From: Enterobacteria phage vB_EcoM_IME341
DNA length: 64,000 nt
Sequence record: MH051917
Direction: 5' to 3' (one strand)
Part shown: positions 4,959 to 64,000 of the stretch, in pieces
How the letters are laid out: the number at the start of each line of letters is the position of its first letter
Position numbering within the stretch: the stretch's first letter is position 1
The notes under the pieces: generated by a model
Seen by the model: only the letters and a program-made list of their open reading frames with translations
The model's database searches: none
Told to the model about the DNA's origin: nothing
Made by a program: the position numbers and the translations under genes

Positions 4959-5549
4959 ATGAACGGTTTATTTAACCAAACTAACACCACCAACTTTATC
5001 TTAGAGGTTAGTGACTCAGGAATGACCCAGTCATTCAAATTGAACGTACAAGATGTAACACTACCTGGTATCCATATTCCGATCTCAGACGTCCCAGGAT
5101 CGACCCAGGGTATACATCGTGCTAAGCTGCCAGGTTCTACAGTAGAATTCGACCCATTGGTCGTGAACTTTCTTGTAGACCGTGAATTGAAATCATGGCT
5201 TGATGTTTATAAGTGGATGTTGTCATTAAACAACTACGTAACCCACGAATCCGAAGCTTGGCATCCTAAAGGCTTACCTGAAGCAATTACGCTCCATATT
5301 CTTGATAATAACAAACAGAAAATCGTAATGAGCATTCATTACTACGGTGGTTGGCCATCCGACCTATCCGAAATCCAGTACTCATATAAAGAGGATTCCG
5401 ACCCTGCGATAATCGCTACAGCAACATTCAACTTCAAATCGTTTGCTGTAGAAATAGATGGTACAATAGTTACAGGTCGTCCACAAATTGATTCGTATGC
5501 CGAACAACGTGTGGCTCGTATGTCTATGCATCCATCTATGAGAAAATAA
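4959..5549 (+). CDS. 3: gp3 tail completion / sheath stabilizer protein
   Basis: 196 aa ORF between gene 2 and gene 1 as in T4. Confidence 0.7.
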   Translation: MNGLFNQTNTTNFILEVSDSGMTQSFKLNVQDVTLPGIHIPISDVPGSTQGIHRAKLPGSTVEFDPLVVNFLVDRELKSWLDVYKWMLSLNNYVTHESEAWHPKGLPEAITLHILDNNKQKIVMSIHYYGGWPSDLSEIQYSYKEDSDPAIIATATFNFKSFAVEIDGTIVTGRPQIDSYAEQRVARMSMHPSMRK

Positions 5550-6302
5550 TGAAACTAATATCAATTGTAGGAATCAAACGTAGCGGTAAGGATACCGTTG
5601 CTAACTATGTAATCGAAAATATGGATTCGGTAAAATTTCAGCTCGCGGGTCCTATTAAAAAGTATCTGGCTGAAGCCTATGAATACATCTCTGATGACCC
5701 TGTATTCGACCGTAGTTATATGCCTAAACTCGATTTTAACTGTTTTGAAGGTATCGGTTACGACCGCGAAGAAATCCTTCCTTTAAAACCATATGATGTG
5801 ATTGATATCTTTGAAAATGCTATTGTCAAACTGAATAATATCCTTCCTATTCCGGGAATTGATGTTCTTACCGCATATCATTATGGTCTTACCCCAGTCC
5901 AGTATCTGTCTGAAGAAACAAAAGACCAACTGTTTGAAGTAATAAATAAAAATAACAATTGGTCAGTACGTCGTCTCATGCAGACCCTTGGGACCGATAT
6001 TATTGTTAACCAATTTGATAAGATGTATTGGGTTAAGTTGTTCGCTTTAGACTATTTTGATAAAATATACTCTGATGCGAAATACTATGTCGTACCTGAT
6101 GTTCGTCAAACACACGAAATTGATTCGCTCAGAGCGATGGGTGCTACGATTATTCATGTAGTTCGCGCTGAAACCGGTCAAGTACAAGACTCGCACATCA
6201 CTGAAGCGGGTCTACCAATTTTACCTGGTGACGTTGTTGTTGAAAATAACGGCACTCTTTCTGAACTATACACTACTATTGATAAATTATTAGGAAATAA
6301 AA

Positions 6303-6310
<8 letters not shown>
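5549..6310 (+). CDS. 1: gp1 deoxynucleoside monophosphate kinase
   Basis: 253 aa, P-loop IVGIKRSGKDT near N-terminus; T4 gene 1 position upstream of 57A. Confidence 0.85.
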
Positions 6311-8712: not shown

Positions 8713-8815
8713 GAATTATGTGATATTATTACTCTATCATTAATACCCTCTATTACCAAAGGTTCTTCCCTCAAAGAATCTTTCATAATAGAATTAATCA
8801 ACTAATGAGGAAAAT

Positions 8816-27530: not shown

Positions 27531-27983
27531 ATGATTATCAATACAAACTCTTGGCACGTTAAATTACACGACCGTTTTTATGACCGTCATTCTCGACCGC
27601 ACTCTTTATGTGCTTACTTCTGGAAAATGGTTTGGGCCTGTTTTGCTTGTGCTGTTGTTGCAGGTAGTACGCTTTTTGGATTAACTGTTGCAGGCGCTGG
27701 TGTATTAGAGCATTTCTTTGTATTAAGTACCCCTGTTCTGTTGAGTCTAGGGTTTGTTTTAGGGTTGATTACGATAGCTCTTATTATTGCGCTATCCATT
27801 GGTTTGGCATTCGGTGCGATGAATTTACACGCATGGTATGATGCCCGTAGAGAAGAAAAGGAATGGCAACGTATTCAAGCTGAGCGTGAAGGCCGAGAAA
27901 CTAAAGAAAACGTTGTCATCCAATATATTAAAGCTCGTAAATCTAAGGTCTGCCCTGTAATCCACTTCGAGAACAAAGAATGA
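27531..27983 (+). CDS. membrane protein
   Basis: 150 aa, two long hydrophobic segments. Confidence 0.5.
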   Translation: MIINTNSWHVKLHDRFYDRHSRPHSLCAYFWKMVWACFACAVVAGSTLFGLTVAGAGVLEHFFVLSTPVLLSLGFVLGLITIALIIALSIGLAFGAMNLHAWYDARREEKEWQRIQAEREGRETKENVVIQYIKARKSKVCPVIHFENKE

Positions 27984-28990
27984 GAACAGTTATGAAAGGC
28001 TACTTCGGTAGCCACCTTTATGGAACAAGTACTCCGGAATCTGATGTCGATTTTAAAGAAATCTTTGTTCCACATCCGCGTGATATTCTGTTAGGTACGG
28101 CTATGAACCATACCAACCTGAATACGAATAACACCGCTTCCAAAAACACTAAAGATGATGTTGACCACGAGCTTTATAGCCTGAAATATTTCTTTAAACT
28201 AGCGGCTGAAGGCGAAACCGTTGCTCTGGACATGATTCATACTCCACCTGAACTGGTGGTTAAATCTGATTTACCTGATGTATGGAAATTTATCCAGGAT
28301 AACCGTTCACGGTTCTATACAACCAACATGAAAGCCTATTTAGGGTACGTCCGTAAGCAAGCTTCTAAATATGGTGTTAAAGGTTCTCGTCTGGCTGCTC
28401 TGCGTGGTGTACTGGCTATTGTTAACCAGATTCCTGAACAGTGGGTCGATTATCAAGAAGATGGTTCGACTAAGCAACGTCGCTCTAAGGTGGAAGATAT
28501 CAAACATCGGCTCCCTGAAAACGAATTCTGTGAATGGGTATTCCATAACCATGAGAAAACAGGTCCTCAAACGTTTTATACTGTTCTCGGACGTAAATAC
28601 CAAACCACTCTGTCATTAATCGAGCTCAAGCAATCTCTGAATAAGCTCGATGCGGAATATGGTGAACGTGCTCGTAAGGCTGAAGCCAATGAAGGTATTG
28701 ACTGGAAAGCTCTGAGCCATGCTTATCGTGCTGGTTATCAGTTGAAGGAAATCTATCAAACAGGTGACCTGGTTTATCCGCTTAAAAATGCTTCTATTAT
28801 TAAAGCAATAAAAGCAGGTGATATGCCTTTTAAAGTGGTCCAAGGGCTGTTGGAAAATATTGTTGATGAAGTCGAAGTCCTGGCTATCCAGGCTCATAAG
28901 AACGGTATGCCTGAGAAGGTAGATATGAAGTTCTGGGACAAGTTCGTTGAAGAGGTGTACCTTGACAACCACAACGCTTATTACCGCTAA
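27980..28990 (+). CDS. Pol-beta superfamily nucleotidyltransferase, unknown substrate
   Basis: N-terminal GSHLYGTSTPESDVDF (hG[GS]x9-13DxD) plus downstream ALDMIH acidic motif; 336 aa. Confidence 0.55.
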   Translation: MRTVMKGYFGSHLYGTSTPESDVDFKEIFVPHPRDILLGTAMNHTNLNTNNTASKNTKDDVDHELYSLKYFFKLAAEGETVALDMIHTPPELVVKSDLPDVWKFIQDNRSRFYTTNMKAYLGYVRKQASKYGVKGSRLAALRGVLAIVNQIPEQWVDYQEDGSTKQRRSKVEDIKHRLPENEFCEWVFHNHEKTGPQTFYTVLGRKYQTTLSLIELKQSLNKLDAEYGERARKAEANEGIDWKALSHAYRAGYQLKEIYQTGDLVYPLKNASIIKAIKAGDMPFKVVQGLLENIVDEVEVLAIQAHKNGMPEKVDMKFWDKFVEEVYLDNHNAYYR

Positions 28991-29186
28991 AGAAGAAATT
29001 AACGTCTTTCTATCGTATGGAAGACCTCATAAAACTCGACGTTGGTATCTTGAAGCCGTCTGTAAAGAAACCGGACGTCGAGTCAATATCAAGTACGCAT
29101 GCAAACCTACGCCTAAACAGACAAGACGATTTGTTAACTGGGCTATAAATGATATCCGCTTCTATAATTTTTGGAGCGCAATTTAG
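28947..29186 (+). CDS. possible small basic protein
   Basis: ORF-track ORF with TTG start overlapping NTase 3' end; ends at terminator. Confidence 0.25.
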   Translation: MKRCTLTTTTLITAKEEINVFLSYGRPHKTRRWYLEAVCKETGRRVNIKYACKPTPKQTRRFVNWAINDIRFYNFWSAI

Positions 29187-29207
29187 GAACCTTCGGGTTC
29201 CTTTTTT
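29185..29207 (+). terminator. intrinsic terminator
   Basis: aggaacc-ttcg-ggttcct + TTTTTT. Confidence 0.7.
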
Positions 29208-29226
29208 GGGTTTAGTGCAAAAAGGT

Positions 29227-29255
29227 GTTTACAACCTCGTAGAGCATGATACTAT
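29227..29255 (+). promoter_or_regulatory. early promoter cassette
   Basis: gtttacaacctcgtagagcatgatactatagacctatcaaataa. Confidence 0.6.
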
Positions 29256-29303
29256 AGACCTATCAAATAAATGAACTGAAACAACTTAAAACGGAGATAC
29301 AAA

Positions 29304-29558
29304 ATGAATATTAAAGCACCTTTCGCCGGTAATGTTATTCGTGAAGATTCAATCGAAATCAACGGTGTGGTAGTTAAAGCGGTTTTAACTGATATCAAAA
29401 CCCTGGTTAAAGTTGATTACTTAACCTTTAATTTCGAAAACATTGAAGGTTATATTAATTTCCCACCAAGCATTAAAATGCATGTACGCCATGAAACTTG
29501 GTCTAAAGCAGATCAGCAAAAAGCAGTAGATTTTATTATTGAGTTCTTCTCAAAATAA
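29304..29558 (+). CDS. hypothetical protein
   Basis: 84 aa. Confidence 0.5.
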   Translation: MNIKAPFAGNVIREDSIEINGVVVKAVLTDIKTLVKVDYLTFNFENIEGYINFPPSIKMHVRHETWSKADQQKAVDFIIEFFSK

Positions 29559-29560
29559 GT

Positions 29561-29589
29561 GTGTACATATGCTTTAAACGTGTTATTAT
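29561..29589 (+). promoter_or_regulatory. degenerate early promoter cassette (GTGTAC / TATTAT)
   Basis: gtgtacatatgctttaaacgtgttattatagacctatcaa. Confidence 0.4.
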
Positions 29590-29626
29590 AGACCTATCAA
29601 ATCTACTGAGTGAAATGGAGAATATA

Positions 29627-30607
29627 ATGTTAACTATCAAAATCAACAAAGGTATCTATCGCGGTAATGAAATCTCTGGTACGTTCATGAGTTCAGGTAA
29701 AACCTGGTTCCCTAATAAAATTCATGAATCCGAAGCTCACCTCGGTGATGGCAAGGTATTCGTACAGATTGATGGTGTTGAACGTGGTGTATGGGTGTTC
29801 AAATGTGACGTTGAAATGGAAGGTGCTGAAGCTCCTGTAGTGGTTACTGAATCCGCTGAAGAAATGAAACATCGCATCAACAAACGTTTTAAAGTAATGA
29901 ACATGATGACTAACGGAATCATCGATGGTAAAATTCGTTCCCTTATCATCTCTGGTGCCGCAGGTATTGGTAAAACGTATTCTTTGGATAAAGCATTACA
30001 GAATGCCCATGAAAATGAAACTATCGAATATAAATCAATCAACGGAAAGATTAGTGGAATCGGTCTTTACGAGCAGCTTTGGAATAACCGCGGCCCTAAT
30101 AGTGTTCTTCTTATCGATGATGTTGATGTATTCTCTGATATGGATATCCTGAACCTGTTAAAAGCAGCATTGGATACCGGTGAAAAACGTAAGGTGTGCT
30201 GGAGCACTTCAAGTTCTTACCTCGATGATAAAAATATCGATAAAGAATTCGAATACGAAGGCACCATCGTGTTCATCACCAACGTTGATATTGACCGTGA
30301 ATTAGAACGTGGAACTAAACTTGCTCCACACCTCCAGGCTTTAGTATCTCGTTCAGTTTACTTAGACCTCGGAGTTCACTCTAACGAAGAGATTATGGTT
30401 CGTGTTGAAGACGTTATCCTGTCCACTGATATGATGCAAAACCGAGGTCTGTCTGATGCTGAGACCTATCAAGCTTTAGCATGGATGAAGGCTAATGTAT
30501 CTCGTCTTCGTAACGTATCATTACGTACAGCTCTTTATCTAGCGGACTTCATTGCCACCGATAAAAATGACTGGAACGAAATCGCTGAAGTTACCCTTCT
30601 GAAATAA
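29627..30607 (+). CDS. P-loop AAA-type ATPase of unknown function
   Basis: Walker A SGAAGIGKT, Walker B VLLIDDVD; 327 aa from ATG after cassette SD. Confidence 0.55.
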   Translation: MLTIKINKGIYRGNEISGTFMSSGKTWFPNKIHESEAHLGDGKVFVQIDGVERGVWVFKCDVEMEGAEAPVVVTESAEEMKHRINKRFKVMNMMTNGIIDGKIRSLIISGAAGIGKTYSLDKALQNAHENETIEYKSINGKISGIGLYEQLWNNRGPNSVLLIDDVDVFSDMDILNLLKAALDTGEKRKVCWSTSSSYLDDKNIDKEFEYEGTIVFITNVDIDRELERGTKLAPHLQALVSRSVYLDLGVHSNEEIMVRVEDVILSTDMMQNRGLSDAETYQALAWMKANVSRLRNVSLRTALYLADFIATDKNDWNEIAEVTLLK

Positions 30608-40351: not shown

Positions 40352-40611
40352 CCCCTGTATCCACTACCCTCGCCTACGAAGGACTAGGGATTTTCTTAAT
40401 AGATAGTTATATGAATGTTGAGTTTATTTGTGGAGAGACTTCTGAAGTGTGGAAGTCTCATATTTCCAAATATAACCAATCAGAATATTTGGTCCTTTAC
40501 CAACAATTCTGTCTTTACATTCAAAGCCAAGGGTTTGAAGGAGCTCCTTCCTTTGAAGAGTTCAAAAAAATCCTTGAAACAGTATTTCAGGCTTATTGCT
40601 TACTCCGTTGA
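40348..40611 (+). CDS. hypothetical protein
   Basis: 87 aa. Confidence 0.45.
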   Translation: MTPVSTTLAYEGLGIFLIDSYMNVEFICGETSEVWKSHISKYNQSEYLVLYQQFCLYIQSQGFEGAPSFEEFKKILETVFQAYCLLR

Positions 40612-40677
40612 TGCTTTAAACGGGTCTTCAAATACTATGATATAATAGACCTATGATTTGAGTTATCTGAGGTAACA

Positions 40678-41235
40678 ATGACCGAAATTAAACTGACTAA
40701 AAATAACTATGTAAATAATAAGGAGCTTCTGAAAGCTATTACCCAATGGAAAACAGAGCTCAGAGAAAATACCGATCCTAATAAAATAGTTCGTCAGAAC
40801 GACGTTATCGGCTTGGCTATTATGCTCATTGCTGAAGGACTAAGTAAACGTTTCAACTTCTCAGGATATACCCAATCTTGGAAGCAAGAAATGATTGCTG
40901 ATGGAATCGAAGCTTCGATTAAAGGTCTTCACAACTTCGACGAAACAAAATACGACAACCCACATGCATATATCACTATGGCTTGTTTTAATGCCTTCGT
41001 TCAGCGTATCAAAAAAGAACGTAAAGAAATGGCAAAGAAATATAGCTACTTCGTCCATAACGTCTATGACAGTAATGATGACGACATGGTAGGTATTGCA
41101 GATGAAACCTTTATCCAAGATATCTACGACAAAATGACTCAGTATGAAACCTCTTTAACTAAAGCACCAGGGTCTGATAAGAGTGCCGAACCTAAAGTTG
41201 GTGAACTGGATTTTTTATATGGAACATCAGATTAA
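40678..41235 (+). CDS. 55: gp55 late-transcription sigma factor
   Basis: 185 aa; [71 protein letters not shown]; highly similar to T4 gp55. Confidence 0.9.
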
Positions 41236-41449
41236 TATCACTCCACTTTTGGATGGAATGGAAGACTTTGAAGCACTCCCTTATTTTATTAAATTGATAT
41301 TACGGGATGTTAAAGGCCTTCCTATTGATATTGACCCACTTAACGTCAGGAATATTGAATTCACTTCTCCTGACAATAACGTAGATTATCGTTATCATGT
41401 TGAGAACGCTAATTTCTACTTCACTATTGAATTGACTCCAAAGGATTAA
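41219..41449 (+). CDS. hypothetical protein
   Basis: 76 aa from ATG overlapping gp55 end. Confidence 0.4.
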
Positions 41450-41450
41450 T

Positions 41451-41762
41451 ATGCAAAGCCATGACATTTCTCAATTGACTGATGAGCAAATTGAAGAAGC
41501 CCAGCAACGTTTAGAAGAGCACAATATTAAAGAAGCTAATTCTCAAGCGGCTAAGATTCTTAAGAAGAATGCTCGTGAAATCCGTCGTTTAAATCTCCAT
41601 GCCCAAGGCGCTGTACTTGAAAACAACTTTGAAGCATATAAGTACGCTTTAATTAAATTACGTGGTATTTACCGTCAACCTGTTACTGATGAACTTGTTC
41701 AATTGATGTGGGAATCTACTCGCAAACAAATTTGGGAAATCGTCAATGGCTCTAGTAAATAA
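41451..41762 (+). CDS. hypothetical protein
   Basis: 103 aa. Confidence 0.5.
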   Translation: MQSHDISQLTDEQIEEAQQRLEEHNIKEANSQAAKILKKNAREIRRLNLHAQGAVLENNFEAYKYALIKLRGIYRQPVTDELVQLMWESTRKQIWEIVNGSSK

Positions 41763-41946
41763 ACCCTTTAAACGGCTTCTTATTGGAGCCGCCTTTAGAC
41801 TTCGCTCATACGGTAATATCTGTATTAAGCAGTCCGAAACCGAATATAAAATGATGGGCCAATATTCTGATGGTATTTTTCAGATTGAGCCCGTAGCCAA
41901 GGTTTGGGTAGATTCTCATCAACTTAAGAAGTGGTGGCAGAGATGA
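41746..41946 (+). CDS. hypothetical protein
   Basis: 66 aa. Confidence 0.4.
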   Translation: MALVNKPFKRLLIGAAFRLRSYGNICIKQSETEYKMMGQYSDGIFQIEPVAKVWVDSHQLKKWWQR

Positions 41947-42168
41947 TAACATGGACTGCAGGCTAATGAAAGACGAATACGAAAAAGTTTAAGAGGCTGT
42001 ATGAATGACGAATTCGATGGATTTTGATAAGATTAAATCTGACAAAAATGAGATGTTGCTTCAATTTGAAGCCGCTCGTATTAAAGCAGAAAATGAAGGT
42101 ACTATTACCTATAAGCCTATCAAGTTCAGGTCTAATCACGAACCTCTGTACGGTGTATTAGTTGGTAA

Positions 42169-42189
42169 AGGAGCTTAGGCTCCTTTTTT
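42169..42189 (+). terminator. intrinsic terminator
   Basis: aggagc-ttag-gctcct + TTTTT. Confidence 0.6.
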
Positions 42190-42213
42190 GCTTTATGCAT
42201 ATCGGAGTACAAT
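42188..42213 (+). promoter_or_regulatory. possible T4-type middle promoter (MotA box TGCTTTA + TACAAT)
   Basis: tTGCTTtA, 12 bp, TACAAT upstream of small ORF and gene 47. Confidence 0.35.
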
Positions 42214-42374
42214 AGTCTAAACTGAGGAGAACATATGGAATTATTTTTAGGATATGTCGTGCTATTAATGGCATTCTATACATTCACACGAGCTTGTTGG
42301 ATAGGATTCTTTTCCACTCCTGACGGGTTCATTTCAATAATTTTATTTTGCACTGCGATAACGGCGCTTGGCTT

Positions 42375-43397
42375 ATGAAAATACTAAACACAGGTGACTG
42401 GCACCTTGGAGTTAAGAACGATGATGTGTGGGTACAGAATATCCAACGTCAAGGTATCCAAGACGCTATTGATTATTCTAAAGCAAATGGTATTACTGTC
42501 TGGATTCAGTACGGTGATATCTTTGACGTTCGTAAAGCAATTACCCACAAGTGCATGGAATTCGCTCGCGAAATTTCCGATTTGCTTAAAGCCAACGGCA
42601 TTACCATGTATACTATCGTTGGCAACCATGATATGCACTACAAAAATACCTTGACTCCGAACGCAGCTTCAGAAGTTCTGGGTAAATATGACCATATCAA
42701 GGTTATTGAGAAACCTACTACGGTTAACTTTGATGGCACCGAAATTGATTTGATTCCATGGATGTGTGAAGAAAACACGACCGATATCATGGACCATATC
42801 AAAAATACCACAGCAGATTTCTGTATAGGTCACTGGGAATTAAATGGTTTCTATTTCTATAAAGGAATGAAATCTCATGGTTTAGAACCTGATTTCCTTA
42901 AGAAGTATAAGCAAGTTTGGTCAGGCCATTTCCACACTATTTCTGATGCAGCAAACGTTAAGTATATTGGTACGCCATGGACCCTGACTGCTGGAGATGA
43001 GAACGACCCTCGCGGCTTTTGGATTTTCGATACAGAAACCCATAAGATGGATTTCATCATTAATGAAACCTGTTGGCACCGTAAGATTCATTATCCAAAT
43101 GCGACTATCGATTACAAAGATTTTACAAATATCGCAGTTCGTGTTATAGTCGATAAAATTGATGACGGTCTTACTAAGTTCGAATCAGAGCTTGAAAAGG
43201 TTGTCCATTCTTTACGTATCGTGTCTAAGGTAGATAACAGTGTTGATATCGATGATTCTGAAGAGGAAGATGAAGTTAAGTCCCTCTTGGATATGATGTA
43301 TGATTATATCGATGCCCTTCCTGATGGCCACACTGAAGACGATGTTAAAGCCCTTAAGACTATGGCTGCACAACTTTATAATGAGGTTACACGATGA
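42375..43397 (+). CDS. 47: gp47 recombination endonuclease subunit (Mre11-like)
   Basis: MKILNTGDWHLGVK..., phosphoesterase motifs GDIFD, GNHD; ORF-track start 42348 is upstream non-ATG. Confidence 0.9.
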   Translation: MKILNTGDWHLGVKNDDVWVQNIQRQGIQDAIDYSKANGITVWIQYGDIFDVRKAITHKCMEFAREISDLLKANGITMYTIVGNHDMHYKNTLTPNAASEVLGKYDHIKVIEKPTTVNFDGTEIDLIPWMCEENTTDIMDHIKNTTADFCIGHWELNGFYFYKGMKSHGLEPDFLKKYKQVWSGHFHTISDAANVKYIGTPWTLTAGDENDPRGFWIFDTETHKMDFIINETCWHRKIHYPNATIDYKDFTNIAVRVIVDKIDDGLTKFESELEKVVHSLRIVSKVDNSVDIDDSEEEDEVKSLLDMMYDYIDALPDGHTEDDVKALKTMAAQLYNEVTR

Positions 43398-48888: not shown

Positions 48889-48908
48889 AAGGGACTTCGG
48901 TCCCTTTT
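48889..48908 (+). terminator. stem-loop / terminator followed by TTGGAGTATAATG
   Basis: aagggac-ttcg-gtccctt + TTTT. Confidence 0.45.
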
Positions 48909-48966
48909 GGAGTATAATGATTCATCAACAAACAAAAGACAATCACTCGTCTATAAAGGAAATGAA

Positions 48967-51678
48967 ATGCAAGAATTCTATTTGACAGTCGAACAAATCG
49001 GTGATAATATTCTCGAACGTTACATCGATAAAAATGGTAACGAACGTAGTCGTGAAGTTCCTTACAAGCCCACAATGTTTATGCATGCCAATCCAGAGCA
49101 AGCCGTAAAATACATTGATATCTATGGTAAGGGTTGTGTTAAGAAAGAATTCGACTCTATGCGCGATGCATCCCAATGGATGAAACGTATGGACGATATG
49201 GGTCTCGAAGCCCTGGGTATGGACGACTATAAATTAGCCTATTTGTCTGATACCTATCGTAAAGAAATCAGGTATGATTCTTCTAAGATTCGTATTGCTA
49301 ACTTCGACATCGAGGTAACATCTCCTGATGGATTCCCTGAACCAGCTCAGGCTAAACATCCTATCGATGCCATTACCCACTACGACTCGATTGACGATAA
49401 ATTCTATGTATTCGACCTTTTAGTTTCGCCTTATGGTACCGTCGAAGAGTGGTCGATTAAAATCGCTGAGAAACTCCAAGAAGAAGGTGGTGACGAAGTT
49501 CCACAAGAAATCATTGACAAAATCGTTTATCTTCCGTTTAATTCCGAAGAAGAAATGATGCTTGAGTATCTGAATTTCTGGCAACAGAAAACTCCTGTGA
49601 TTTTGACTGGATGGAACGTTGAGTCGTTTGACGTACCATACGTTTATAACCGTCTGAAAAATCTGTTTGGTGAGAACACTGCTAAGCGATTAAGCCCGCA
49701 TCGTAAGACTCGTGTTAAAGTTATCGAGAACATGTACGGTGCTCGTGAAATTATTACATTGTTCGGTATCTCTGTTCTAGATTATATCGACCTGTATAAA
49801 AAATTCAGCTTTACCAACCAGCCTTCTTATTCTCTGGATTATGTTTCTGAATATGAATTGAAAGTAGGTAAGTTGAAATATGATGGTCCAATCTCCAAGT
49901 TACGTGAGACTAACCACCAACGATATATTTCCTATAACATTATCGACGTATATCGTGTAGTGCAGATTGATATGAAACGCCAGTTCATTCTTTTGAGTTT
50001 GGACATGGGTTATTATGCTAAGATGCAGATTCAGTCGGTGTTCAGTCCAATTAAGACTTGGGATGCTATTATCTTTAATAGCCTTAAAGAACAAGGCAAG
50101 GTCATTCCGCAGGGTCGTTCACACGTGGTCCAACCTTATCCTGGTGCTTTCGTTAAGGAACCTATTCCTAACGCTTACAAATATGTAATGAGTTTCGACC
50201 TTACATCTCTGTACCCGAGTATCATTCGACAAGTGAATATAAGCCCAGAGACCATCGCAGGGACATTCGCTAACGCACCTATACATGAATATATTGCCGG
50301 AACAGCTCCGCGTCCTAGCGACACCTACAGTTGCTCTCCTAACGGCATGATGTACTATAAAGACCGTGAAGGTGTGATTCCGACAGAAATCACTAAGGTG
50401 TTCTTACAACGTAAAGAACATAAAGGTTATATGCTTGCAGCCCAACGTAATGGTGAGTTAATTAAAGAAGCATTAGAAAATCCTAATCTCTCGGTTGATA
50501 GTCCACTGGATATCGATTATCGTTTTGACTTCTCTGACGAAATCAAAGCCCAGATTAAAGCACTGTCAGCGCCTTCTTTAAGAGAAATGTTGAAGAAAGC
50601 CGAGCTCACTGAAGTTGCAGGTAATACGGCTCAGATTAACCGTAAGTTGCTTATCAACTCCCTTTATGGTGCACTTGGTAACGTATGGTTCCGTTACTAC
50701 GACCTCAGGAACGCAACTGCAATCACACTGTTTGGTCAAATGGCCCTCCAATGGATTGAACGTAAGGTTAACGAATATCTGAATAGCGTGTGTAAGACTG
50801 AAAACCAGAAGTTCGTGCTCTATGGTGATACTGACTCCATTTATGTTAAGGCAGATGCAATCATCAATAAAGTAGGTGAAGATAAATTCCGTGACACTAA
50901 CCACTGGGTCGACTTCTTAGATAAATTTGCACGTGAACGTATGGAACCGGCTATTGATGCAGGCTTCCGTGAGATGTGCGAGTACATGAACAACAAACAA
51001 CACTTGATGTTCATGGACCGAGAAGCTATCGCAGGTCCTCCACTTGGTTCTAAAGGTCTTGGTGGATTCTGGACAGGCAAGAAACGTTATGCACTGAACG
51101 TTTGGGACATGGAAGGTACTCGTTATGCCGAACCACACTTGAAAATCATGGGCCTTGAAACTCAGAAATCAAGTACGCCTAAAGCGGTTCAGAAAGCTCT
51201 GAAAGAATGTATCCGTCGTATGCTTCAGGAAGGCGAGGCCTCTTTGCAAGAATATTTCAAACAGTTTAATAAGGAATTTAACGAACTAAACTATGTAAGC
51301 ATTGCAGCAGTATCCAGTGCTAACAACATTGAGAAATATAACGAAGGCGGATTCCCTGGTTCTAAATGCCCGTACCATATCAAAGGTTGCTTAGCTTACA
51401 TGCGTGCTTCTGCAGGTGATTTGACTATGCCTCGTATCGTTGATGGTGAAAAGGTATATGTACTGCCACTTAAAGAAGGCAACCCGTTTGGTGAAGCCTG
51501 TATGGCATGGCCGTCAGGTATTGAACTTCCAGTTCAGATTCGTGACCAAGTCCTCCGTTGGATGGACTACAACGTACTGTTCCAAAAGACCTTTATCAAG
51601 CCTCTGACTGGTTTTACTGAGTCCGCTAAAATCGACTACGAGAAAAAAGCAACATTATTTGATATGTTCGACTTTTAA
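48967..51678 (+). CDS. 43: gp43 DNA polymerase (family B)
   Basis: 903 aa; MQEFYLTVEQIGDNILERYID..., exo and pol motifs (FDIE, YGDTDS); ORF-track start 48907 is upstream. Confidence 0.95.
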   Translation: MQEFYLTVEQIGDNILERYIDKNGNERSREVPYKPTMFMHANPEQAVKYIDIYGKGCVKKEFDSMRDASQWMKRMDDMGLEALGMDDYKLAYLSDTYRKEIRYDSSKIRIANFDIEVTSPDGFPEPAQAKHPIDAITHYDSIDDKFYVFDLLVSPYGTVEEWSIKIAEKLQEEGGDEVPQEIIDKIVYLPFNSEEEMMLEYLNFWQQKTPVILTGWNVESFDVPYVYNRLKNLFGENTAKRLSPHRKTRVKVIENMYGAREIITLFGISVLDYIDLYKKFSFTNQPSYSLDYVSEYELKVGKLKYDGPISKLRETNHQRYISYNIIDVYRVVQIDMKRQFILLSLDMGYYAKMQIQSVFSPIKTWDAIIFNSLKEQGKVIPQGRSHVVQPYPGAFVKEPIPNAYKYVMSFDLTSLYPSIIRQVNISPETIAGTFANAPIHEYIAGTAPRPSDTYSCSPNGMMYYKDREGVIPTEITKVFLQRKEHKGYMLAAQRNGELIKEALENPNLSVDSPLDIDYRFDFSDEIKAQIKALSAPSLREMLKKAELTEVAGNTAQINRKLLINSLYGALGNVWFRYYDLRNATAITLFGQMALQWIERKVNEYLNSVCKTENQKFVLYGDTDSIYVKADAIINKVGEDKFRDTNHWVDFLDKFARERMEPAIDAGFREMCEYMNNKQHLMFMDREAIAGPPLGSKGLGGFWTGKKRYALNVWDMEGTRYAEPHLKIMGLETQKSSTPKAVQKALKECIRRMLQEGEASLQEYFKQFNKEFNELNYVSIAAVSSANNIEKYNEGGFPGSKCPYHIKGCLAYMRASAGDLTMPRIVDGEKVYVLPLKEGNPFGEACMAWPSGIELPVQIRDQVLRWMDYNVLFQKTFIKPLTGFTESAKIDYEKKATLFDMFDF

Positions 51679-52119: not shown

Positions 52120-52620
52120 ATGAAAAAGTTAATTATCGCAATGAGTATACTCCTATCAGGTTGCGCGGCCCAATATGGTGATGCAGTTTCAGCCGATGAA
52201 GTTGGTAAAGCTCGTATCGCAGCTGAACAGAAACAATTCGATGGCGAAATGAAATTCCGTGCAGGTTCTGGACTTGTGTATACCCGAGCTAATAATCAAT
52301 GCGGTAATAACTGTGCAAAATATGCTCAAAGGGAAATCGAATTCCAACGTGAACAAGAGTCTAAGCGTGAAGCGGTACTAGCCAAACACCAGGCAGAAAT
52401 GAAGCGCCAAGATGATTTGTACAAAAAGCAGAAACTGTATGCGATGTGCGTAAACCATATCAATCTACAGATTTCTATCCATGAGGCTCGTTATTACGAA
52501 ATGCTCGAAACCGAGAGCTTCGATAAAGCCCGTGATTATAAGAAACAAATCAATAAGCTCAAGACCAAAGTACCGGCGGCAATAGAACAGTGTATTGAAA
52601 TCGGTAAAGATAAGATTTAA
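52120..52620 (+). CDS. predicted lipoprotein
   Basis: Signal peptide with lipobox LLSGC; coiled-coil rest. Confidence 0.55.
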   Translation: MKKLIIAMSILLSGCAAQYGDAVSADEVGKARIAAEQKQFDGEMKFRAGSGLVYTRANNQCGNNCAKYAQREIEFQREQESKREAVLAKHQAEMKRQDDLYKKQKLYAMCVNHINLQISIHEARYYEMLETESFDKARDYKKQINKLKTKVPAAIEQCIEIGKDKI

Positions 52621-52680
52621 GCAATACCAATTTATTAAAAATAGTGTATAATGTACCTACATTCACTTGAGGAACAGATA

Positions 52681-54354
52681 ATGAAAAAGGTTGTTATTTT
52701 AGGCGCAGGTCTTGGCTCACGGTTGTATCCAATTACTAACGAAATCCCGAAGGTATTGGTTAACTACAAACAACATACTGTATTAAAACATTTGTATGAT
52801 TTGTATAGTAACCAATCGGATGAAATTATTCTGGTTATTCACAGCAAATTTAACGACCTCGTTAAAGGCTATATTAAATCCATTAACATGATTAATAGTG
52901 ATAAGCCTAAATTCACTATTCGTAACGTAGATGTGGCTAATGGTTCAGCTCATGCTATTGATTGCATTGCCGAAGATATCATCGGGCACAATGTCTTGTT
53001 TAACTGGTGTGATATTATTCCTGAAGGTTATAAAGTTGAGTGGGATAACGACTATTGCTATACCTACGGGACTGACTGTCGTTTTACATTTGAAGAACCG
53101 TACTTGCGTGAAATTGGTACCGGTGGTGGCGTAGTTGGCTTGTATCAGGTGGCTAATTGGACAGGTTTTAACGGTCTGTATTATGGCGAAGACCTGGCCG
53201 ACAACCTGGATTCAATGGTCCATTTGACCGAACGTAAGCTAGACTTTGTAGTTGATGTCGGTGACAAACTGAAACTGGCTAAGGCCCATGAAGAATCTGA
53301 AATTAACCGTGAATTTAATAAATTAGAGTTCACTGAGAATCTGGCTATTAAAGTACCTACCAACGAATTAGGTAAAGAAATCCAATCTAAAGAAATCAAT
53401 TGGTATAATTCTATTGATTCTGAATTTGTTCCGAGCATTGTAGACTTTGCTCCAGGTGAATTCATTAAAATGGAACGTATCTTTGGTCGTACTATGGCAG
53501 ATGCCTATCGGTTTATGTCTAAAGAAACTAAAGTCCTCATGGTTTATAAGGTCATTAGTGCATTACGTTCATTCGGTGGAACTATCGATAATCCATCCGA
53601 TGAGCAATGGTATTCCGATGTTAAGAAAGAAGTATTGGACAAGGTCCTTATTCGTAATGCTTCTATTGCCGGATTGATTGAAGGCTTTGCTCCACAGGGC
53701 ATTACCCATGTCAATGACTTTAAGGTAGGCGACCCTGAAAAACTTCTTCGCCATGCACTAGAAATTCTGTCTGAACATAAAGAACCGTACCAACTTATTC
53801 ATGGCGACCCGCACTACAGTAATATTATGTTGTCGGACGAAGGTGATATTAAAATCATCGACCCACGTGGTTATTTTGGTAATAGTTCTAAAGGCCCTGC
53901 GATTTATGACGAAGCTAAAGTGCTTTATTCTATCGATGGTTATGACAAATTTAACTCTGACCCTCTATGGGGCGGCTTAACTCGTAACGGAACTCGTGTA
54001 TTCGTTGATATTGAAAAGGTTATGCCTTTAGACGATATTCCGATGTGTACATTTAAGCACAAGCTCTGGATTGCTGTTATCTGGATGGCATTGGCAGGTT
54101 ACTTTAAAAATAACCCTCTGAAAGCTCTGGGTGCTTATTACAACGGGTTGTACCAACTGAGTGTGCTGCTTAAGCGGCATCCTCGTAAGCGTAAGCTTAT
54201 CACAGGTGAATTTGTCGATGAAGTTCGTGACCCTATCACGGCTCAAATTATCACTCGTTGTCCTGATAAGTGGGTTTTGCTTGACCAAGAAACTGGTGTA
54301 AAATATAAACCTACAGGTTCTACTGAACTCCACAAACAATGGAAGAAAATTTAA
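52681..54354 (+). CDS. bifunctional sugar-1-phosphate nucleotidyltransferase / APH-fold kinase
   Basis: N-terminal NTP-transferase motif ILGAGLGSRLYP; C-terminal kinase motifs LIHGDPHYSNIML and IDPRGYFG (Brenner / DFG-like); 557 aa. Confidence 0.65.
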   Translation: MKKVVILGAGLGSRLYPITNEIPKVLVNYKQHTVLKHLYDLYSNQSDEIILVIHSKFNDLVKGYIKSINMINSDKPKFTIRNVDVANGSAHAIDCIAEDIIGHNVLFNWCDIIPEGYKVEWDNDYCYTYGTDCRFTFEEPYLREIGTGGGVVGLYQVANWTGFNGLYYGEDLADNLDSMVHLTERKLDFVVDVGDKLKLAKAHEESEINREFNKLEFTENLAIKVPTNELGKEIQSKEINWYNSIDSEFVPSIVDFAPGEFIKMERIFGRTMADAYRFMSKETKVLMVYKVISALRSFGGTIDNPSDEQWYSDVKKEVLDKVLIRNASIAGLIEGFAPQGITHVNDFKVGDPEKLLRHALEILSEHKEPYQLIHGDPHYSNIMLSDEGDIKIIDPRGYFGNSSKGPAIYDEAKVLYSIDGYDKFNSDPLWGGLTRNGTRVFVDIEKVMPLDDIPMCTFKHKLWIAVIWMALAGYFKNNPLKALGAYYNGLYQLSVLLKRHPRKRKLITGEFVDEVRDPITAQIITRCPDKWVLLDQETGVKYKPTGSTELHKQWKKI

Positions 54355-54713
54355 TGCATCTGTGTTTTGATATCGATAACACAATCACGGTTTGGAACCA
54401 CGACCGTGATTATGAAAACTTTAAACCGGACACCGAAATGGTGTCCATGATTAATAAGCTTTATGACGAAGGTTATGAGATTACACTGTTCACTGCTCGT
54501 GGCATGACTTCATGTGGACCCGGTCGAATCTTGGTTGAAGTAGTTCCTGCATTGGTTAAGAACCTTGAAAAGATTGGATTGAAATATCATAATCTGCTTA
54601 CACACAAGCCGAGTTATACTTTTATCATCGATGACCGAGCAATCCGTCCTGACCACTTTAAAGAAATGGTTCGTGAAGGAACTCTTGAAACCTATAAGGC
54701 ATATCATCCGTGA
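54354..54713 (+). CDS. HAD-superfamily phosphatase
   Basis: Motif I FDIDNTIT (DxDxT), motif II TLFTARG, motif III K...IIDD; 119 aa. Confidence 0.65.
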   Translation: MHLCFDIDNTITVWNHDRDYENFKPDTEMVSMINKLYDEGYEITLFTARGMTSCGPGRILVEVVPALVKNLEKIGLKYHNLLTHKPSYTFIIDDRAIRPDHFKEMVREGTLETYKAYHP

Positions 54714-55246
54714 AACCAAAAATCATTGTTATCGACGGCCCGGATAATTCCGGGAAGTCTACTTTAATTGAATCACTTTTATCTGATAAGAAATATCGTC
54801 TTATTGATTTTCCTAAAAAGATTAATGGCAAATGCATTTCATTAGGGACTGATAATGACAAGGCTTTAGTCGAGACGTTGTATAAGTTTTTAGACCCTAA
54901 TTTCGTTTACATCCTCGACCGTGGTTATCCAAGTAATATAGTTTACTCAGGATTCCTTCGTGGTGAAATGGACCCTTATGTGGAACTAGCAGATTGGATT
55001 GATTTCAAAAAAGAATTCAATATCATTGAGATTATTTTAACCCGTAATCCGTTGGATAAAGACTTTGAAGATGACCTCATTAAACTGACTAAAGATGAGT
55101 TCAACTTAACTATTCAGAAATATGAAGACTGTTTTAAAAATGTTTTTAAAGTTTTAAACCATGACGGACATAATAACTTGCTTAACGTCGATATGGTAGA
55201 ATTAAAACGTCTGAATGAATATATTGAAAATAAGGTGAATAAATGA
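54710..55246 (+). CDS. P-loop nucleoside/nucleotide kinase-like protein
   Basis: Walker A IDGPDNSGKST in a 178-aa protein (dNK/TMK-like size). Confidence 0.55.
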   Translation: MKPKIIVIDGPDNSGKSTLIESLLSDKKYRLIDFPKKINGKCISLGTDNDKALVETLYKFLDPNFVYILDRGYPSNIVYSGFLRGEMDPYVELADWIDFKKEFNIIEIILTRNPLDKDFEDDLIKLTKDEFNLTIQKYEDCFKNVFKVLNHDGHNNLLNVDMVELKRLNEYIENKVNK

Positions 55247-55941
55247 AACACATTACCGCTGTTAGTTTTGAAAACGCGTTTAAGCAAATGAACGAAGAAA
55301 TCCTGGAAGCTCCACAGTTTGCAGTTGATTCTCGTATCGGCCGTTGTTATGAAATTGGTTCTGCTTCGGTAGAAGTACTGGATGCAAGCACTTACAAATT
55401 CACCGATCCCCGCATTAATCGTATCAACTATGATTATGCCGAATCTTTCTGGAAATTTATGATTTCTGGTGGTACTGATGCCGCCGAAGCATTTAAGGAA
55501 TATCCTAATGTTGCTAAGTTCATTGATAAGCCGAAAAGTGACGTATTGCCTGCAAACTTCAACACTTTCTATGGACCTCGAATTGTGGCCCAACTCCCAG
55601 CCCTACTTAAAGAGCTTAAAGAAAAGCCTAACTCGCGAAGAGTTGTGTTCCAGATTCTCCAAGAACAAGACCAAGCCCTCCTTGATTCTGACGAATCCTT
55701 AGAATATCCGTGTACCGATTCGGTAACATATTATATTCGTGATGGACGTCTGTATGCACACACTCATATGCGTTCACAGAACTGTGCTATCGTTATGCAG
55801 CTGGATTTCTATCTGCAGGGTAAACTGATGGCCTTTATTGCTGAACAGTGTGGTGTTGGTCTGGGTACGTATTCCCATACTATGGTTAGTGCACATGTAT
55901 TTGAACGTGATTTTGACTACGTTCGAGGATTCCTGAAATGA
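55243..55941 (+). CDS. thymidylate-synthase-superfamily pyrimidine hydroxymethylase (divergent gp42-like)
   Basis: Recalled TS/dCH motifs: NSRR, catalytic PC (EYPCTDSVTYYIRDG), HMRSQN, Asp at specificity position, HVFERDF. Confidence 0.6.
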   Translation: MKHITAVSFENAFKQMNEEILEAPQFAVDSRIGRCYEIGSASVEVLDASTYKFTDPRINRINYDYAESFWKFMISGGTDAAEAFKEYPNVAKFIDKPKSDVLPANFNTFYGPRIVAQLPALLKELKEKPNSRRVVFQILQEQDQALLDSDESLEYPCTDSVTYYIRDGRLYAHTHMRSQNCAIVMQLDFYLQGKLMAFIAEQCGVGLGTYSHTMVSAHVFERDFDYVRGFLK

Positions 55942-56831
55942 GTCTGTTTATCGTTCCTATTTTCAGTATGCGTAGTTACGAAACAGGTGAATATGCCGTC
56001 CTTAAGGACGGTAATTTTCAACTCCATTTAAACCGTGCTTGCCCAGGTGATTATCTGGCTTATCCTAGAAATTCGAGCGATATCAAAGAATGTATTGAAT
56101 TGTTTCCTGAACTGAATTTTGTACCGCTTTGGTATAAAGAAAATGCTTATGAAACCCGTAAACATTTTTGGTCTGAAAATGAGTTCGTTGTTGATTCGCT
56201 AATCGAATACTATGACTGCTCAGGATTAGTAACCGATATCACAGGTTATGATGGTGCTCAGACAGTACAATTCAACTTTAACATTACAATGGACCCTGAA
56301 GTTCCTCGTTATTATATTGATGAGTTCATTGATATCGATGTGTCTTCGGTTGAACGTTCGATTTATACTACAGTCCTTAACCAATGCCAGAAAGACGTCC
56401 TGGTGTCACGAGGTGCGTCCTCTGATAAGATTTTTGTAGACCAAAAGGTAATTAATCCTGCAATAATTGAGCGTTACTCTGAAGGTCTAGCGCCTATTAA
56501 AATTGATGGTATTTTCCATCCATTCCGTATCTCTGATAAATGCTATCAATTCGAAAGAGTTGTAGACCAAGCTGCGGCTGAAGGTTCTCGTCTTTACATC
56601 ACCGATCCGAATGATTCATTTAAGCGTGAAGACTATCGTCCTGATGTAGAGATTATTAAATTCAAACCGAGTAAGGTTGAATATTATCAGATTCTGAAAT
56701 CAAGACCTCATATCATTTATCATGAGAATCCTGGTTTAGTATTCCATCCTGGTCTAGCTGAATTCATTTATTTCGGTGCCCATATCCATTCTGAGTACGA
56801 AATGCCGAGTTATGAGGACGTAGTATGCTAG
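55938..56831 (+). CDS. hypothetical protein in the position of T4 beta-glucosyltransferase
   Basis: 297 aa; no motif recognised by eye. Confidence 0.5.
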   Translation: MSLFIVPIFSMRSYETGEYAVLKDGNFQLHLNRACPGDYLAYPRNSSDIKECIELFPELNFVPLWYKENAYETRKHFWSENEFVVDSLIEYYDCSGLVTDITGYDGAQTVQFNFNITMDPEVPRYYIDEFIDIDVSSVERSIYTTVLNQCQKDVLVSRGASSDKIFVDQKVINPAIIERYSEGLAPIKIDGIFHPFRISDKCYQFERVVDQAAAEGSRLYITDPNDSFKREDYRPDVEIIKFKPSKVEYYQILKSRPHIIYHENPGLVFHPGLAEFIYFGAHIHSEYEMPSYEDVVC

Positions 56832-63554: not shown

Positions 63555-63635
63555 GTTATCCTCCTGTTAAATTATTATTTATTCGCTTTAATTTAACAGT
63601 TTATAATTATCTAACTTATTAATGAATTGAAAAAG

Positions 63636-64000
63636 GAAAAATATAATGGCACACTTTAATGAATGTTCACAACTTATTGCTGGTGTTGATAAAGCTGAGA
63701 AAGCTTATTTTAATGCTCTGATTCACGAAGATAAAGACCCTCTGCAGGTTATGCTTGATATGCAGAAATCATTACAGGTCCGTTTGGCTAAAGATAAACC
63801 TGAATATAACCGTCATCCTGATGACTTGGCTACTGCAGGTGAAGTTGTTGATTGGTTGCGCAATCAGAAAGATTATATTGATGATGAATTCCGCGAACTT
63901 CTGACTTCTCTTGGTGGCATGAGCAATGGCGAAAAAGATGCGAGCGCTGTATGGAAGCCTTGGAAAGCTCAACATGCTGAACGTCGTGAAACCCTGATTA
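63636..64000 (+). CDS. 56: gp56 dCTP pyrophosphatase (MazG-like), N-terminal part; continues past window end
   Basis: MAHFNECSQLIAGVDKAEKAYF...DPLQVMLDMQ...DDEFRELLTSLG highly similar to T4 gp56. Confidence 0.85.

Follow-up and report, generated by a model that had tools for sequence, protein, structure and literature searches.

Absence of alpha- and beta-glucosyltransferase genes and a predicted 5-hydroxycytosine arabinosylation module in a JS98-like T4 relative

In phage T4, genes 55 and 47 are separated by, in this order, a-gt.5, a-gt.4, a-gt.3, a-gt.2, mobB, a-gt and 47.1. The premise of the initial annotation, that an alpha-glucosyltransferase of roughly 400 aa lies between these two genes in T4, therefore holds for a-gt itself but simplified the interval by leaving out its other genes. 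Glucosylating genera carry a-gt between a-gt.2 and gene 47, accompanied in T4 by the homing endonuclease gene mobB, and the order in the Jiaodavirus Mineola is a-gt.2, a-gt, a terminator and gene 47. RB69 (Mosigvirus) has gene 55, a-gt.5 to a-gt.2 and gene 47, with an empty a-gt slot. JS98-type phages were described as being without glucosyltransferase homologues (Petrov et al. 2010, PMC2993671), and comparative genomics has listed the Dhakaviruses among the Straboviridae with a syntenic cytosine arabinosylation cluster (Lee et al. 2026, PMC13326640). In RB69, m/z 376 was reported for the pentosylated nucleoside mono-arabinosyl-5-hydroxy-dC (PMC13326640).

We analyzed a 64-kb stretch of DNA (hereafter the window) that, by sequence comparison, derives from a JS98-like T4 relative of the genus Dhakavirus. 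Its best match is Escherichia phage C6 (Dhakavirus), with a DNA identity of about 97% (97.6%), and it is 91-98% identical to WG01, IME08 and JS98; no record of the phage collection matches the source phage exactly. We consider it highly likely that this phage, which lacks a-gt and b-gt, arabinosylates 5-hydroxycytosine through an alternative module, with mono-arabinosyl-5-hydroxycytosine as the predicted product.

Gene content between gene 55 and gene 47

The interval spans positions 41236-42374, exactly as initially annotated, with the gene 55 stop codon ending at 41235 and gene 47 starting at 42375. The annotated content, ORFs of 47-103 aa together with a terminator and a MotA-box-like promoter, was also confirmed and comprises five genes, a hairpin (42167-42186) and a MotA box site (42189-42213). 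The features are as follows.

40678..41235, + strand: gene 55, late sigma factor, left border (phrog_234, E 8.9e-69; 79% identity to T4 gp55)
41219..41449, + strand: a-gt.5 homologue, 76 aa from its ATG (phrog_1169, E 2.2e-25; DUF5491, PF17595, E 4e-13; 43% identity to T4 a-gt.5)
41451..41762, + strand: a-gt.4 homologue, 103 aa (phrog_951, E 1.3e-39; DUF2654, PF10849, E 4e-23; 41% identity to T4 and 49% to RB69)
41746..41946, + strand: a-gt.3 homologue, 66 aa (phrog_1648, E 2.9e-29; 45% identity to T4 a-gt.3)
42005..42178, + strand: a-gt.2 homologue, 57 aa (phrog_2140, E 1.9e-31; DUF5486, PF17588, E 1.7e-19; 57% identity to T4 a-gt.2)
42167..42192, + strand: intrinsic-terminator-like hairpin and T run (8-bp stem with 4 GC pairs and a 4-nt loop)
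42189..42213, + strand: MotA-box middle-promoter-like site (TGCTTTA at 42189-42195, a 12-nt spacer and TACAAT at 42208-42213)
42235..42378, + strand: 47.1 homologue, 47 aa, predicted small membrane protein (phrog_6693, E 2e-30; 76% identity to T4 47.1)
42375..43397, + strand: gene 47, SbcD-like recombination nuclease subunit, right border (phrog_100, E 1.9e-136; 71% identity to T4 gp47)

Family matches identify all five small ORFs as genuine, conserved genes: the PHROG matches are strong throughout, three of the five have a Pfam match, and tblastn places their T4 homologues at 41-76% identity. No ORF longer than 103 aa occurs on the coding strand of the interval. The a-gt.5 homologue shares 17 nt with gene 55, an overlap also present in T4, and begins at the start annotated in C6; at the other end, the 47.1 stop and the gene 47 start overlap in ATGA. 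The 196 bp between the a-gt.2 stop and the gene 47 start hold the predicted terminator, the predicted promoter and 47.1. By gene order and homology, the block is the T4 block minus mobB and a-gt, the only genes by which the two differ. The slot between a-gt.2 and gene 47 is thus empty, as in RB69, and lacks the a-gt found there in Mineola. The gene order is shared by JS98, IME08, WG01 and C6, which are annotated with a-gt.5, a-gt.4, a-gt.3, a-gt.2 and gene 47 and without a glucosyltransferase. In IME08, QL01, Bp7 and SHP1, a seg-like homing endonuclease gene takes the place of the 47.1 of the window. Other Dhakaviruses have additional ORFs of 205 aa and 284 aa in the a-gt slot; these were considered as transferases and rejected, as they are seg-like homing endonucleases.

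The hairpin has a folding energy of -13.8 kcal/mol (z = -2.66 against shuffles), carries the a-gt.2 stop codon in its loop, and has a counterpart after a-gt.2 in IME08, RB69 and T4. Rho-independent terminators combine a GC-rich hairpin with a U run directly behind it and close a transcription unit; this element fits that pattern and is a putative terminator. The MotA box has the form (a/t)(a/t)TGCTT(t/c)A, is centered near -30 and precedes a sigma-70 -10 element by 11-13 nt. The extended match at 42187-42213 (TTTGCTTTA, 12 nt, TACAAT) conforms to this description of a MotA-dependent middle promoter, and the core TTGCTTTAT is kept in the alignments of T4, RB69 and IME08. The window contains 11 instances of the box/-10 pattern, compared with 2.0 +/- 1.4 expected. 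The genes asiA and 'modifier of transcription' are annotated in C6, outside the region of the window. From its position, this candidate promoter would drive 47.1 and gene 47. The cassettes seen in the slot after a-gt.2 are mobB plus a-gt (T4), a-gt (Jiaodavirus) and seg-like endonuclease genes (some Dhakaviruses). The module of hairpin and MotA promoter after a-gt.2 may be a recombination seam for cassette swapping in this slot.

Absence of a-gt and b-gt from the window and from phage C6

T4 a-gt (400 aa) and b-gt (351 aa) were used as tblastn and phmmer --max queries against the window and the complete C6 genome (1107 six-frame ORFs). No homologue of T4 a-gt was found in the window or in the full C6 genome (best E values of 0.038 over 36 aa with tblastn and 0.12 with phmmer --max), and none of T4 b-gt was found in the same sequences (no tblastn match at E < 1; best phmmer --max E of 0.55). 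As a positive control, the a-gt query matched 657 phage records. The tblastn comparison that the initial annotation had proposed thus returned no homologue, and its two claims, that no alpha-gt lies between gp55 and gp47, where only the five small genes occur, and that beta-gt is missing, both stand. By position, a-gt is missing from its T4 and Jiaodavirus location between a-gt.2 and gene 47. The b-gt location, flanked by the gene 42 homologue and uvsX, does hold a transferase gene (55938-56831), but one of the RB69 gp46:47 family rather than of the b-gt family.

Two weak tblastn matches to a-gt were rejected as transferases. The one at 29816-30136 (E 0.041) falls in an ORF that Pfam identifies as an AAA ATPase carrying an HTH domain, and the one at 54480-54587 (E 0.038) is a 36-aa stretch within the HAD phosphatase described below. 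Among the larger ORFs of the window without an assigned function, Pfam recognized no glycosyltransferase domains.

About 106 kb of the source genome lies outside the 64-kb window and was judged through the C6 genome and the JS98 literature. Glucosyltransferase genes located in that part would be in keeping with the plastic regions of T4-like genomes and with the polymorphic a-gt slot of the Dhakaviruses. However, the complete C6 genome, at about 97% identity, has no match, JS98 was reported to be without these genes (PMC2993671), and the polymorphic inserts of the slot are homing endonuclease genes rather than transferases. Moreover, the predicted product of the D169N synthase described below would offer no hydroxymethyl group to a-gt or b-gt. 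We therefore regard a location elsewhere in the genome as extremely improbable and take both genes to be absent from the phage.

Genes between DNA polymerase and uvsX

The arabinosylation clusters of RB69, HY126 and Acinetobacter phage DLP3 lie between the DNA polymerase gene and uvsX. In the window, homologues of RB69 gp45, gp46:47, gp48, gp51 and gp52:53 occupy the same location, between gene 43 and uvsX. These genes, together with two others that would feed the pathway and process the modified nucleotide, are as follows.

5549..6310, + strand: gene 1 dNMP kinase (PF21448, E 2.7e-90)
52651..54354, + strand: bifunctional sugar-phosphate kinase / NDP-sugar pyrophosphorylase, 567 aa, RB69 gp52:53 / HY126 AfhE type (PF00483 at residues 13-110, PF01636 at 356-427)
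54339..54713, + strand: HAD-type sugar phosphatase, RB69 gp51 / HY126 AfhF type (63% identity to RB69 p051; PDB 9iqw, E 7.8e-54)
54710..55246, + strand: P-loop nucleotide kinase, thymidylate-kinase-like, RB69 gp45 type (phrog_761, E 4e-40; 37% identity to RB69 p045)
55243..55941, + strand: thymidylate-synthase-family enzyme, 232 aa, in the gene 42 position, predicted 5-hydroxy-dCMP synthase (79% identity to RB69 gp48 versus 25% to T4 gp42)
55938..56831, + strand: GT-B glycosyltransferase in the b-gt slot, predicted first DNA arabinosyltransferase, RB69 gp46:47 type (65-70% identity to RB69 gp46:47)
63646..64000, + strand: gene 56 dCTPase/dUTPase, N-terminal 118 codons, cut by the window end (86% identity to the C6 dCTP pyrophosphatase)

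Alignment of the synthase with E. coli ThyA, T4 gp42 and RB69 gp48 showed the catalytic Cys146 together with L143E, D169N and N177D, so that the enzyme, which is only 25% identical to the T4 dCMP hydroxymethylase gp42, has Asn rather than Asp at ThyA position 169. In flavin-dependent 5-hydroxy-dCMP synthases that were verified by experiment, D169N is the diagnostic residue (PMC13326640). Given this residue and the much greater similarity to RB69 gp48 than to T4 gp42, the base is most likely arabinosyl-5-hydroxycytosine and probably not a hydroxymethylcytosine derivative. The synthase also matches PDB entries 9iqu and 9iqc (E 1.5e-125), and the 9iq* series, which the phosphatase matches as well, includes 9iqz, titled 'phage HY126 glycosyltransferase'.

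The bifunctional enzyme has an N-terminal nucleotidyltransferase and a C-terminal kinase domain and is 41-43% identical to both RB69 halves (p053 and p052); its matches to NCBIfam sugar-1-P nucleotidylyltransferases fall below cutoff. In IME08, gp43 was noted as a homologue of RB69 ORF53_52c (PMC6024577). The phosphatase groups with AfhF and RB69 gp51, and its match to TIGR01689 (E 1e-14) is below the cutoff of that family. Since both Pfam and NCBIfam miss the GT-B protein, structure prediction was needed for the transferase, and it gave a GT-B fold; a profile search of its protein family against PDB sequences gave nothing significant. The gene is intact and conserved and adjoins the synthase gene, as expected of a transferase of the RB69 gp46:47 / DLP3 gp79 kind.

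Petrov et al. (2010, PMC2993671) raised for JS98 and RB69 that the DNA contains a modified cytosine free of sugar, either hydroxymethyl- or hydroxycytosine, and the missing a-gt and b-gt homologues would fit this. The intact, conserved GT-B transferase and the pair of genes for sugar-nucleotide synthesis that adjoin the synthase gene nevertheless speak against a bare base, and RB69, which has homologous genes, was shown to have arabinosylated cytosines (PMC6024577, PMC13326640). We find a sugar-free cytosine very unlikely and favor a glycosylated 5-hydroxycytosine. The reading of the initial annotation, a DNA modification other than glucose, gains support here, as a-gt and b-gt are absent and a cytosine arabinosylation module is encoded in the window.

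The cluster differs from that of RB69 in several respects. Homologues of RB69 p055 (arabinose-5-phosphate isomerase), p050 and p049 were found in neither the window nor C6, and neither contains a second arabinosyltransferase of the RB69 gp3 type, whereas RB69 has all four. No SIS domain was matched among the cluster ORFs, and a phage isomerase such as RB69 p055 or DLP3 gp83 is thus missing. Between rIIA.1 and gene 39, C6 has just two small ORFs. The small kinase gene lies upstream of the synthase gene in the window but downstream of the transferase gene in RB69. Unlike the RB69, HY126 and DLP3 clusters, that of the window has an extra ORF of 166 aa (52120-52620), which has only 11 related clusters, falls into no family of Pfam or NCBIfam, and does not match RB69 p055, p050 or p049.

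Predicted pathway and modified base

We propose the following scheme, in which each enzymatic activity, the sugar and the number of sugars are predictions. The gp56 dCTPase would supply dCMP, which the thymidylate synthase homologue in the gene 42 position would convert into 5-hydroxy-dCMP. The gp1 dNMP kinase, which would be needed to raise the modified dCMP to the diphosphate level, and host enzymes would then produce the triphosphate for replication. T4 draws on host UDP-glucose, whereas the source phage would have to synthesize a sugar nucleotide itself, with its HAD phosphatase and bifunctional kinase/nucleotidyltransferase converting arabinose 5-phosphate into UDP-arabinose. E. coli itself produces arabinose 5-phosphate through KdsD and GutQ. 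As the phage lacks an isomerase, one of these host enzymes is presumably the source; the phage isomerase would be dispensable and is probably an accessory feature. Finally, the single GT-B transferase in the T4 beta-gt position would place arabinose on the 5-hydroxyl. Because a second, RB69 gp3-type transferase is lacking, the product is predicted to be mono-arabinosyl-5-hydroxycytosine; this absence bears on the number of sugars and not on membership in the system. A phage that makes this different hypermodified cytosine would not need the glucosyltransferases.

The absence of p055, p050 and p049 homologues from the window and from C6 means that the sugar or the route could differ, with the same 5-hydroxycytosine base carrying a sugar other than arabinose or being served by a different sugar-nucleotide route. 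The divergence of the kinase/nucleotidyltransferase, at only 41-43% identity to RB69 gp52:53, and the hexoses carried by the 5-hydroxycytosine of Rhizobium phage RL38J1 (PMC13326640) point in the same direction. However, with identities of 65-70% for the transferase and 63% for the phosphatase, these two enzymes closely resemble their RB69 counterparts, and the arabinose 5-phosphate of E. coli makes a phage isomerase dispensable. We consider a different sugar or route unlikely, and arabinose remains our preferred assignment.

The role of the transferase family rests on synteny and fold, since the DLP3 transferases, tested singly in vitro, did not arabinosylate 5hoC-containing DNA (PMC13326640). 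Our literature search found no chemical analysis of Dhakavirus DNA, whose composition is predicted from synteny. A similar configuration is that of Shewanella phage Thanatos, a distant member of the Straboviridae with a different host, in which one transferase is likewise syntenic with the synthase; this single-transferase configuration was reported to give mono-arabinosylated cytosine (PMC13326640). We see about an even chance that the Dhakaviruses run a minimal five-gene arabinosylation pathway with no isomerase, and hence dependent on host KdsD or GutQ, and with one transferase. In that case, mono-arabinosyl-5-hydroxycytosine, perhaps with a different pentose in place of arabinose, would be the only form in their DNA.

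The absence of a-gt and b-gt together with an arabinosylation gene set is a correct but ordinary finding, because the gene set for arabinose-decorated 5-hydroxycytosine has already been described for this group. It adds no new biology, as the missing glucosyltransferases of JS98-type phages were reported in 2010 and the arabinosylation cluster of the Dhakaviruses was noted between 2018 and 2026. For a therapeutic coliphage, the type of cytosine hypermodification determines which defences (restriction, CRISPR, and type IV systems such as GmrSD and BrxU) are evaded or set off, and also whether recombination with T-even phages is possible. Therefore, the placement of this phage in the arabosyl-5-hydroxycytosine group, and not in the glucosyl-hydroxymethylcytosine group, is a useful annotation.

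The gene 55-gene 47 interval

The plus strand of the window has the orientation in which early and middle genes are transcribed in T4. Gene 55 (40678-41235, plus), gene 47 (42375-43397, plus), gene 43 (48907-51678) and uvsX (57034-58215) served as landmarks, and genes 46, 45, 44, 62, regA, 41 and 61 provided further ones. The region 40600-42500 shares 97.6% identity with Escherichia phage C6 and 91-98% with WG01, IME08, QL01, Bp7, MX01 and JS98; all seven are T4-like and belong to the genus Dhakavirus. The relatives rank alike over a 24-kb stretch, where, among the matches listed, none covering the stretch exceeds about 97% identity.

A 336-aa ORF (27980-28990, plus) carries an RlaP-type nucleotidyltransferase domain (PF10127, E 6e-11), a type of the DNA polymerase beta family belonging to an RNA repair pathway. 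A 348-aa ORF (29561-30607, plus) gave weak AAA/STAND NTPase and HTH matches, all below Pfam cutoffs; just upstream of it, C6 (L001 8418-9173) carries an extra 251-aa minus-strand ORF that is absent from the window (28991-29560). The C6 annotation places a 66-aa ORF (ORF29) between gene 61 and the dCTPase gene, opposite to them in strand; the equivalent stretch of the window is 63354-63560 (minus), between genes 61 and 56.

The initial annotation had reported only ORFs of 47-103 aa, and no alpha-glucosyltransferase (α-gt), between gp55 and gp47. Its interval, 41236-42374, is exactly the gap from the gene 55 stop to the gene 47 start, and we found five small ORFs there on the plus strand, none of them α-gt.

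Small genes of the interval, with identity to the T4 gene by tblastn
41219-41449, plus: α-gt.5 homologue, 76 aa, 43%
41451-41762, plus: α-gt.4 homologue, 103 aa, 41%
41746-41946, plus: α-gt.3 homologue, 66 aa, 45%
42005-42178, plus: α-gt.2 homologue, 57 aa, 57%
42235-42378, plus: 47.1 homologue, 47 aa, 76%

Because every one matches a PHROG family (E 2e-25 to 1e-39), three match Pfam DUF5491, DUF2654 and DUF5486, and all pair with T4 genes by tblastn, these are real genes rather than chance ORFs. The T4 order is 55, α-gt.5, α-gt.4, α-gt.3, α-gt.2, mobB, α-gt, 47.1, 47; the window therefore holds the T4 block without mobB and α-gt, and RB69 has the same block without α-gt, mobB and 47.1. In Klebsiella phage Mineola (Jiaodavirus), an α-gt 66% identical to the T4 protein lies between α-gt.2 and the terminator preceding gene 47. 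Given the T4 and Mineola positions, the slot downstream of α-gt.2 is the regular home of α-gt in glucosylating genera, and in the window it is empty of this gene.

We searched the window and the complete C6 genome, which stood in for the 106 kb of this genome beyond the window, by tblastn with α-gt and beta-glucosyltransferase (β-gt) from the T4 record, and nothing significant was retrieved, in agreement with the absence of both genes previously proposed. The best α-gt match covered 36 residues (E 0.038), and β-gt gave no match at E < 1. When the 1107 six-frame ORFs of 60 aa or longer from the window and C6 were searched by unfiltered phmmer, the best E values were 0.12 (α-gt) and 0.55 (β-gt). 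The 36-residue match was rejected, as it falls inside a phosphatase gene. As a positive control, the same α-gt query retrieved 657 phage records. Already in 2010, Petrov et al. described JS98-type phages as having no glucosyltransferase genes (PMC2993671).

The α-gt slot and its putative regulatory module

The α-gt slot is a polymorphic seam, among near-identical Dhakaviruses too. The polymorphic segment (42179-42374) lies between the putative terminator/promoter of α-gt.2 and gene 47, and the loci compared, under our handles, were L010 4580-5142, L014 3760-4403, L017 3729-4619 and L015 3861-3917.

Occupants of the slot
47.1: window, C6, MN04
205-aa seg-like GIY-YIG ORF: IME08, a metagenomic contig
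284-aa full-length version of that ORF: Salmonella phage SHP1, another contig
nothing or almost nothing: RB69, one contig (L015)
mobB, α-gt, 47.1: T4

The Dhakavirus inserts were rejected as transferases, being seg-like GIY-YIG homing endonuclease genes.

Both sequence elements previously described in the interval, a terminator and a MotA-box-like promoter, were located. An 8-bp hairpin, AAAGGAGC-TTAG-GCTCCTTT (42167-42186), overlaps the α-gt.2 stop codon and is followed by a T run; its folding energy is -13.8 kcal/mol (z = -2.66 versus shuffles). Directly 3′ of it, TGCTTTA (42189-42195), a 12-nt spacer and TACAAT (42208-42213) agree with the MotA-box middle-promoter consensus established for T4 transcription, and a Shine-Dalgarno sequence and the 47.1 start follow about 10-25 nt downstream. 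We infer that the hairpin functions as a terminator and TGCTTTA/TACAAT as a promoter. The window contains 11 matches to TGCTTWA-N11-13-TANNNT versus 2.0 +/- 1.4 expected (about five-fold enriched), and eight of them are on the early/middle-transcribed plus strand.

MotA-box-like patterns
Plus strand: 8705, 13311, 23738, 42189, 42583, 45521, 46081, 55179
Minus strand: 4945, 35814, 47372

The site at 55179-55202 lies within a small kinase gene, just upstream of a synthase gene.

The hairpin and TTGCTTTAT module is kept after α-gt.2 in IME08, RB69 and T4, preceding mobB in the latter. The module occurs once each in the window, RB69 and IME08. In T4 (L002, minus strand) there are two similar hairpin and GCTTTA (MotA-box-like) modules, one after α-gt.2 before mobB (14681-14735) and the other after α-gt before 47.1 (12586-12630). 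These bracket the mobB and α-gt cassette, which suggests its gain or loss through recombination between repeated regulatory modules.

The cluster between gene 43 and uvsX

From gene 43 to uvsX, the window has six ORFs where T4 carries imm, 42 and β-gt, and five of them are homologues of the RB69 cytosine arabinosylation cluster. The non-glucose DNA modification proposed by the initial annotation is thereby supported.

Cluster homologues and supporting enzymes
52651-54354: sugar-activating enzyme, 567 aa, N-terminal nucleotidyltransferase and C-terminal aminoglycoside-phosphotransferase-like kinase domains
54339-54713: HAD phosphatase, AfhF type, 124 aa, 63% to RB69 p051
54710-55246: thymidylate-kinase-like P-loop kinase, 178 aa, 37% to RB69 p045
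55243-55941: thymidylate-synthase-family protein, 232 aa, 79% to RB69 gp48, only 25% to T4 gp42
55938-56831: glycosyltransferase candidate, 297 aa, 65-70% to RB69 p047 and p046
5549-6310: gp1 dNMP kinase, supporting enzyme
starting at 63646, truncated where the window stops: gp56 dCTPase, supporting enzyme

The 567-aa ORF shows 41-43% identity to RB69 p053 and p052, which are parts of a single gene interrupted by a sequencing error (PMC6024577) and whose counterpart is HY126 AfhE, a bifunctional arabinose-phosphate kinase/UDP-arabinose pyrophosphorylase (PMC13326640). RB69 p046 and p047 are likewise really one gene (PMC13326640). The RB69 reference record (3598-4498, 7095-8781) splits both pairs, and the single window ORFs (297 and 567 aa) agree with the reported sequencing errors. 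The phosphatase matches PDB 9iqw (E 7.8e-54) and the capsule biosynthesis phosphatase model TIGR01689, and the synthase matches PDB 9iqu and 9iqc at E 1.5e-125, versus 4.7e-6 for T4 gp42.

The 297-aa protein has no match in Pfam, NCBIfam or PDB sequences; its homologues come from T4-like phages, among them phages of Acinetobacter (Acj9, Acj61, Ac42), Serratia (92A1), Yersinia and Edwardsiella. Modelled by AlphaFold2 with 42 of these homologues, the protein reached a mean pLDDT of 94.8 and a pTM of 0.89.

A 166-aa ORF (52120-52620, plus) separates imm-like small ORFs from the sugar-activating gene, and may or may not be part of the cluster. It has no Pfam or NCBIfam match, belongs to phrog_1754 (function not assigned by PHROG), has only 11 related clusters in a 5.8-billion-protein collection, and has no counterpart in the regions of T4 and RB69 used for comparison.

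The predicted modified base and its sugar

Lee et al. 2026 showed that RB69 gp48 and DLP3 gp80 produce 5-hydroxy-dCMP, not 5-hydroxymethyl-dCMP, and that Asn at the E. coli ThyA Asp169 position marks all verified 5-hydroxy-dCMP synthases (PMC13326640). In our alignment of ThyA, T4 gp42, RB69 gp48 and the 232-aa protein, the latter reads RSQN against RSCD in ThyA and RSND in T4 gp42, and is therefore D169N; it also has Cys146, L143E and N177D. From this signature, the base made by the phage is predicted to be 5-hydroxycytosine, which would correct the older label "arabinosyl-hmC" that persists in several publications (PMC6024577, PMC8056088, PMC7552041).

The initial annotation's finding of no glucosyltransferase and its non-glucose reading are correct, but already known from publications of 2010, 2018 and 2026: a 2018 paper pointed out that IME08 has a homologue of the RB69 sugar-activating enzyme (PMC6024577), and Lee et al. 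explicitly name Dhakaviruses among the Straboviridae that have the syntenic arabinosylation cluster and make 5-hydroxycytosine (PMC13326640). We found no chemical analysis of Dhakavirus DNA in the literature searched.

Several RB69 components have no homologue in the window or C6, namely gp3 (the proposed second-arabinose transferase), p055 (arabinose-5-phosphate isomerase), p050 and p049. The slot between rIIA.1 and gene 39 holds gp3 in RB69 and only two small ORFs in C6. E. coli produces arabinose 5-phosphate for Kdo synthesis, so the pathway could run without a phage isomerase. In Shewanella phage Thanatos a lone transferase goes with mono-arabinosylation (PMC13326640); by analogy, we predict that the phage, with its one putative transferase, would carry a single arabinose per cytosine.
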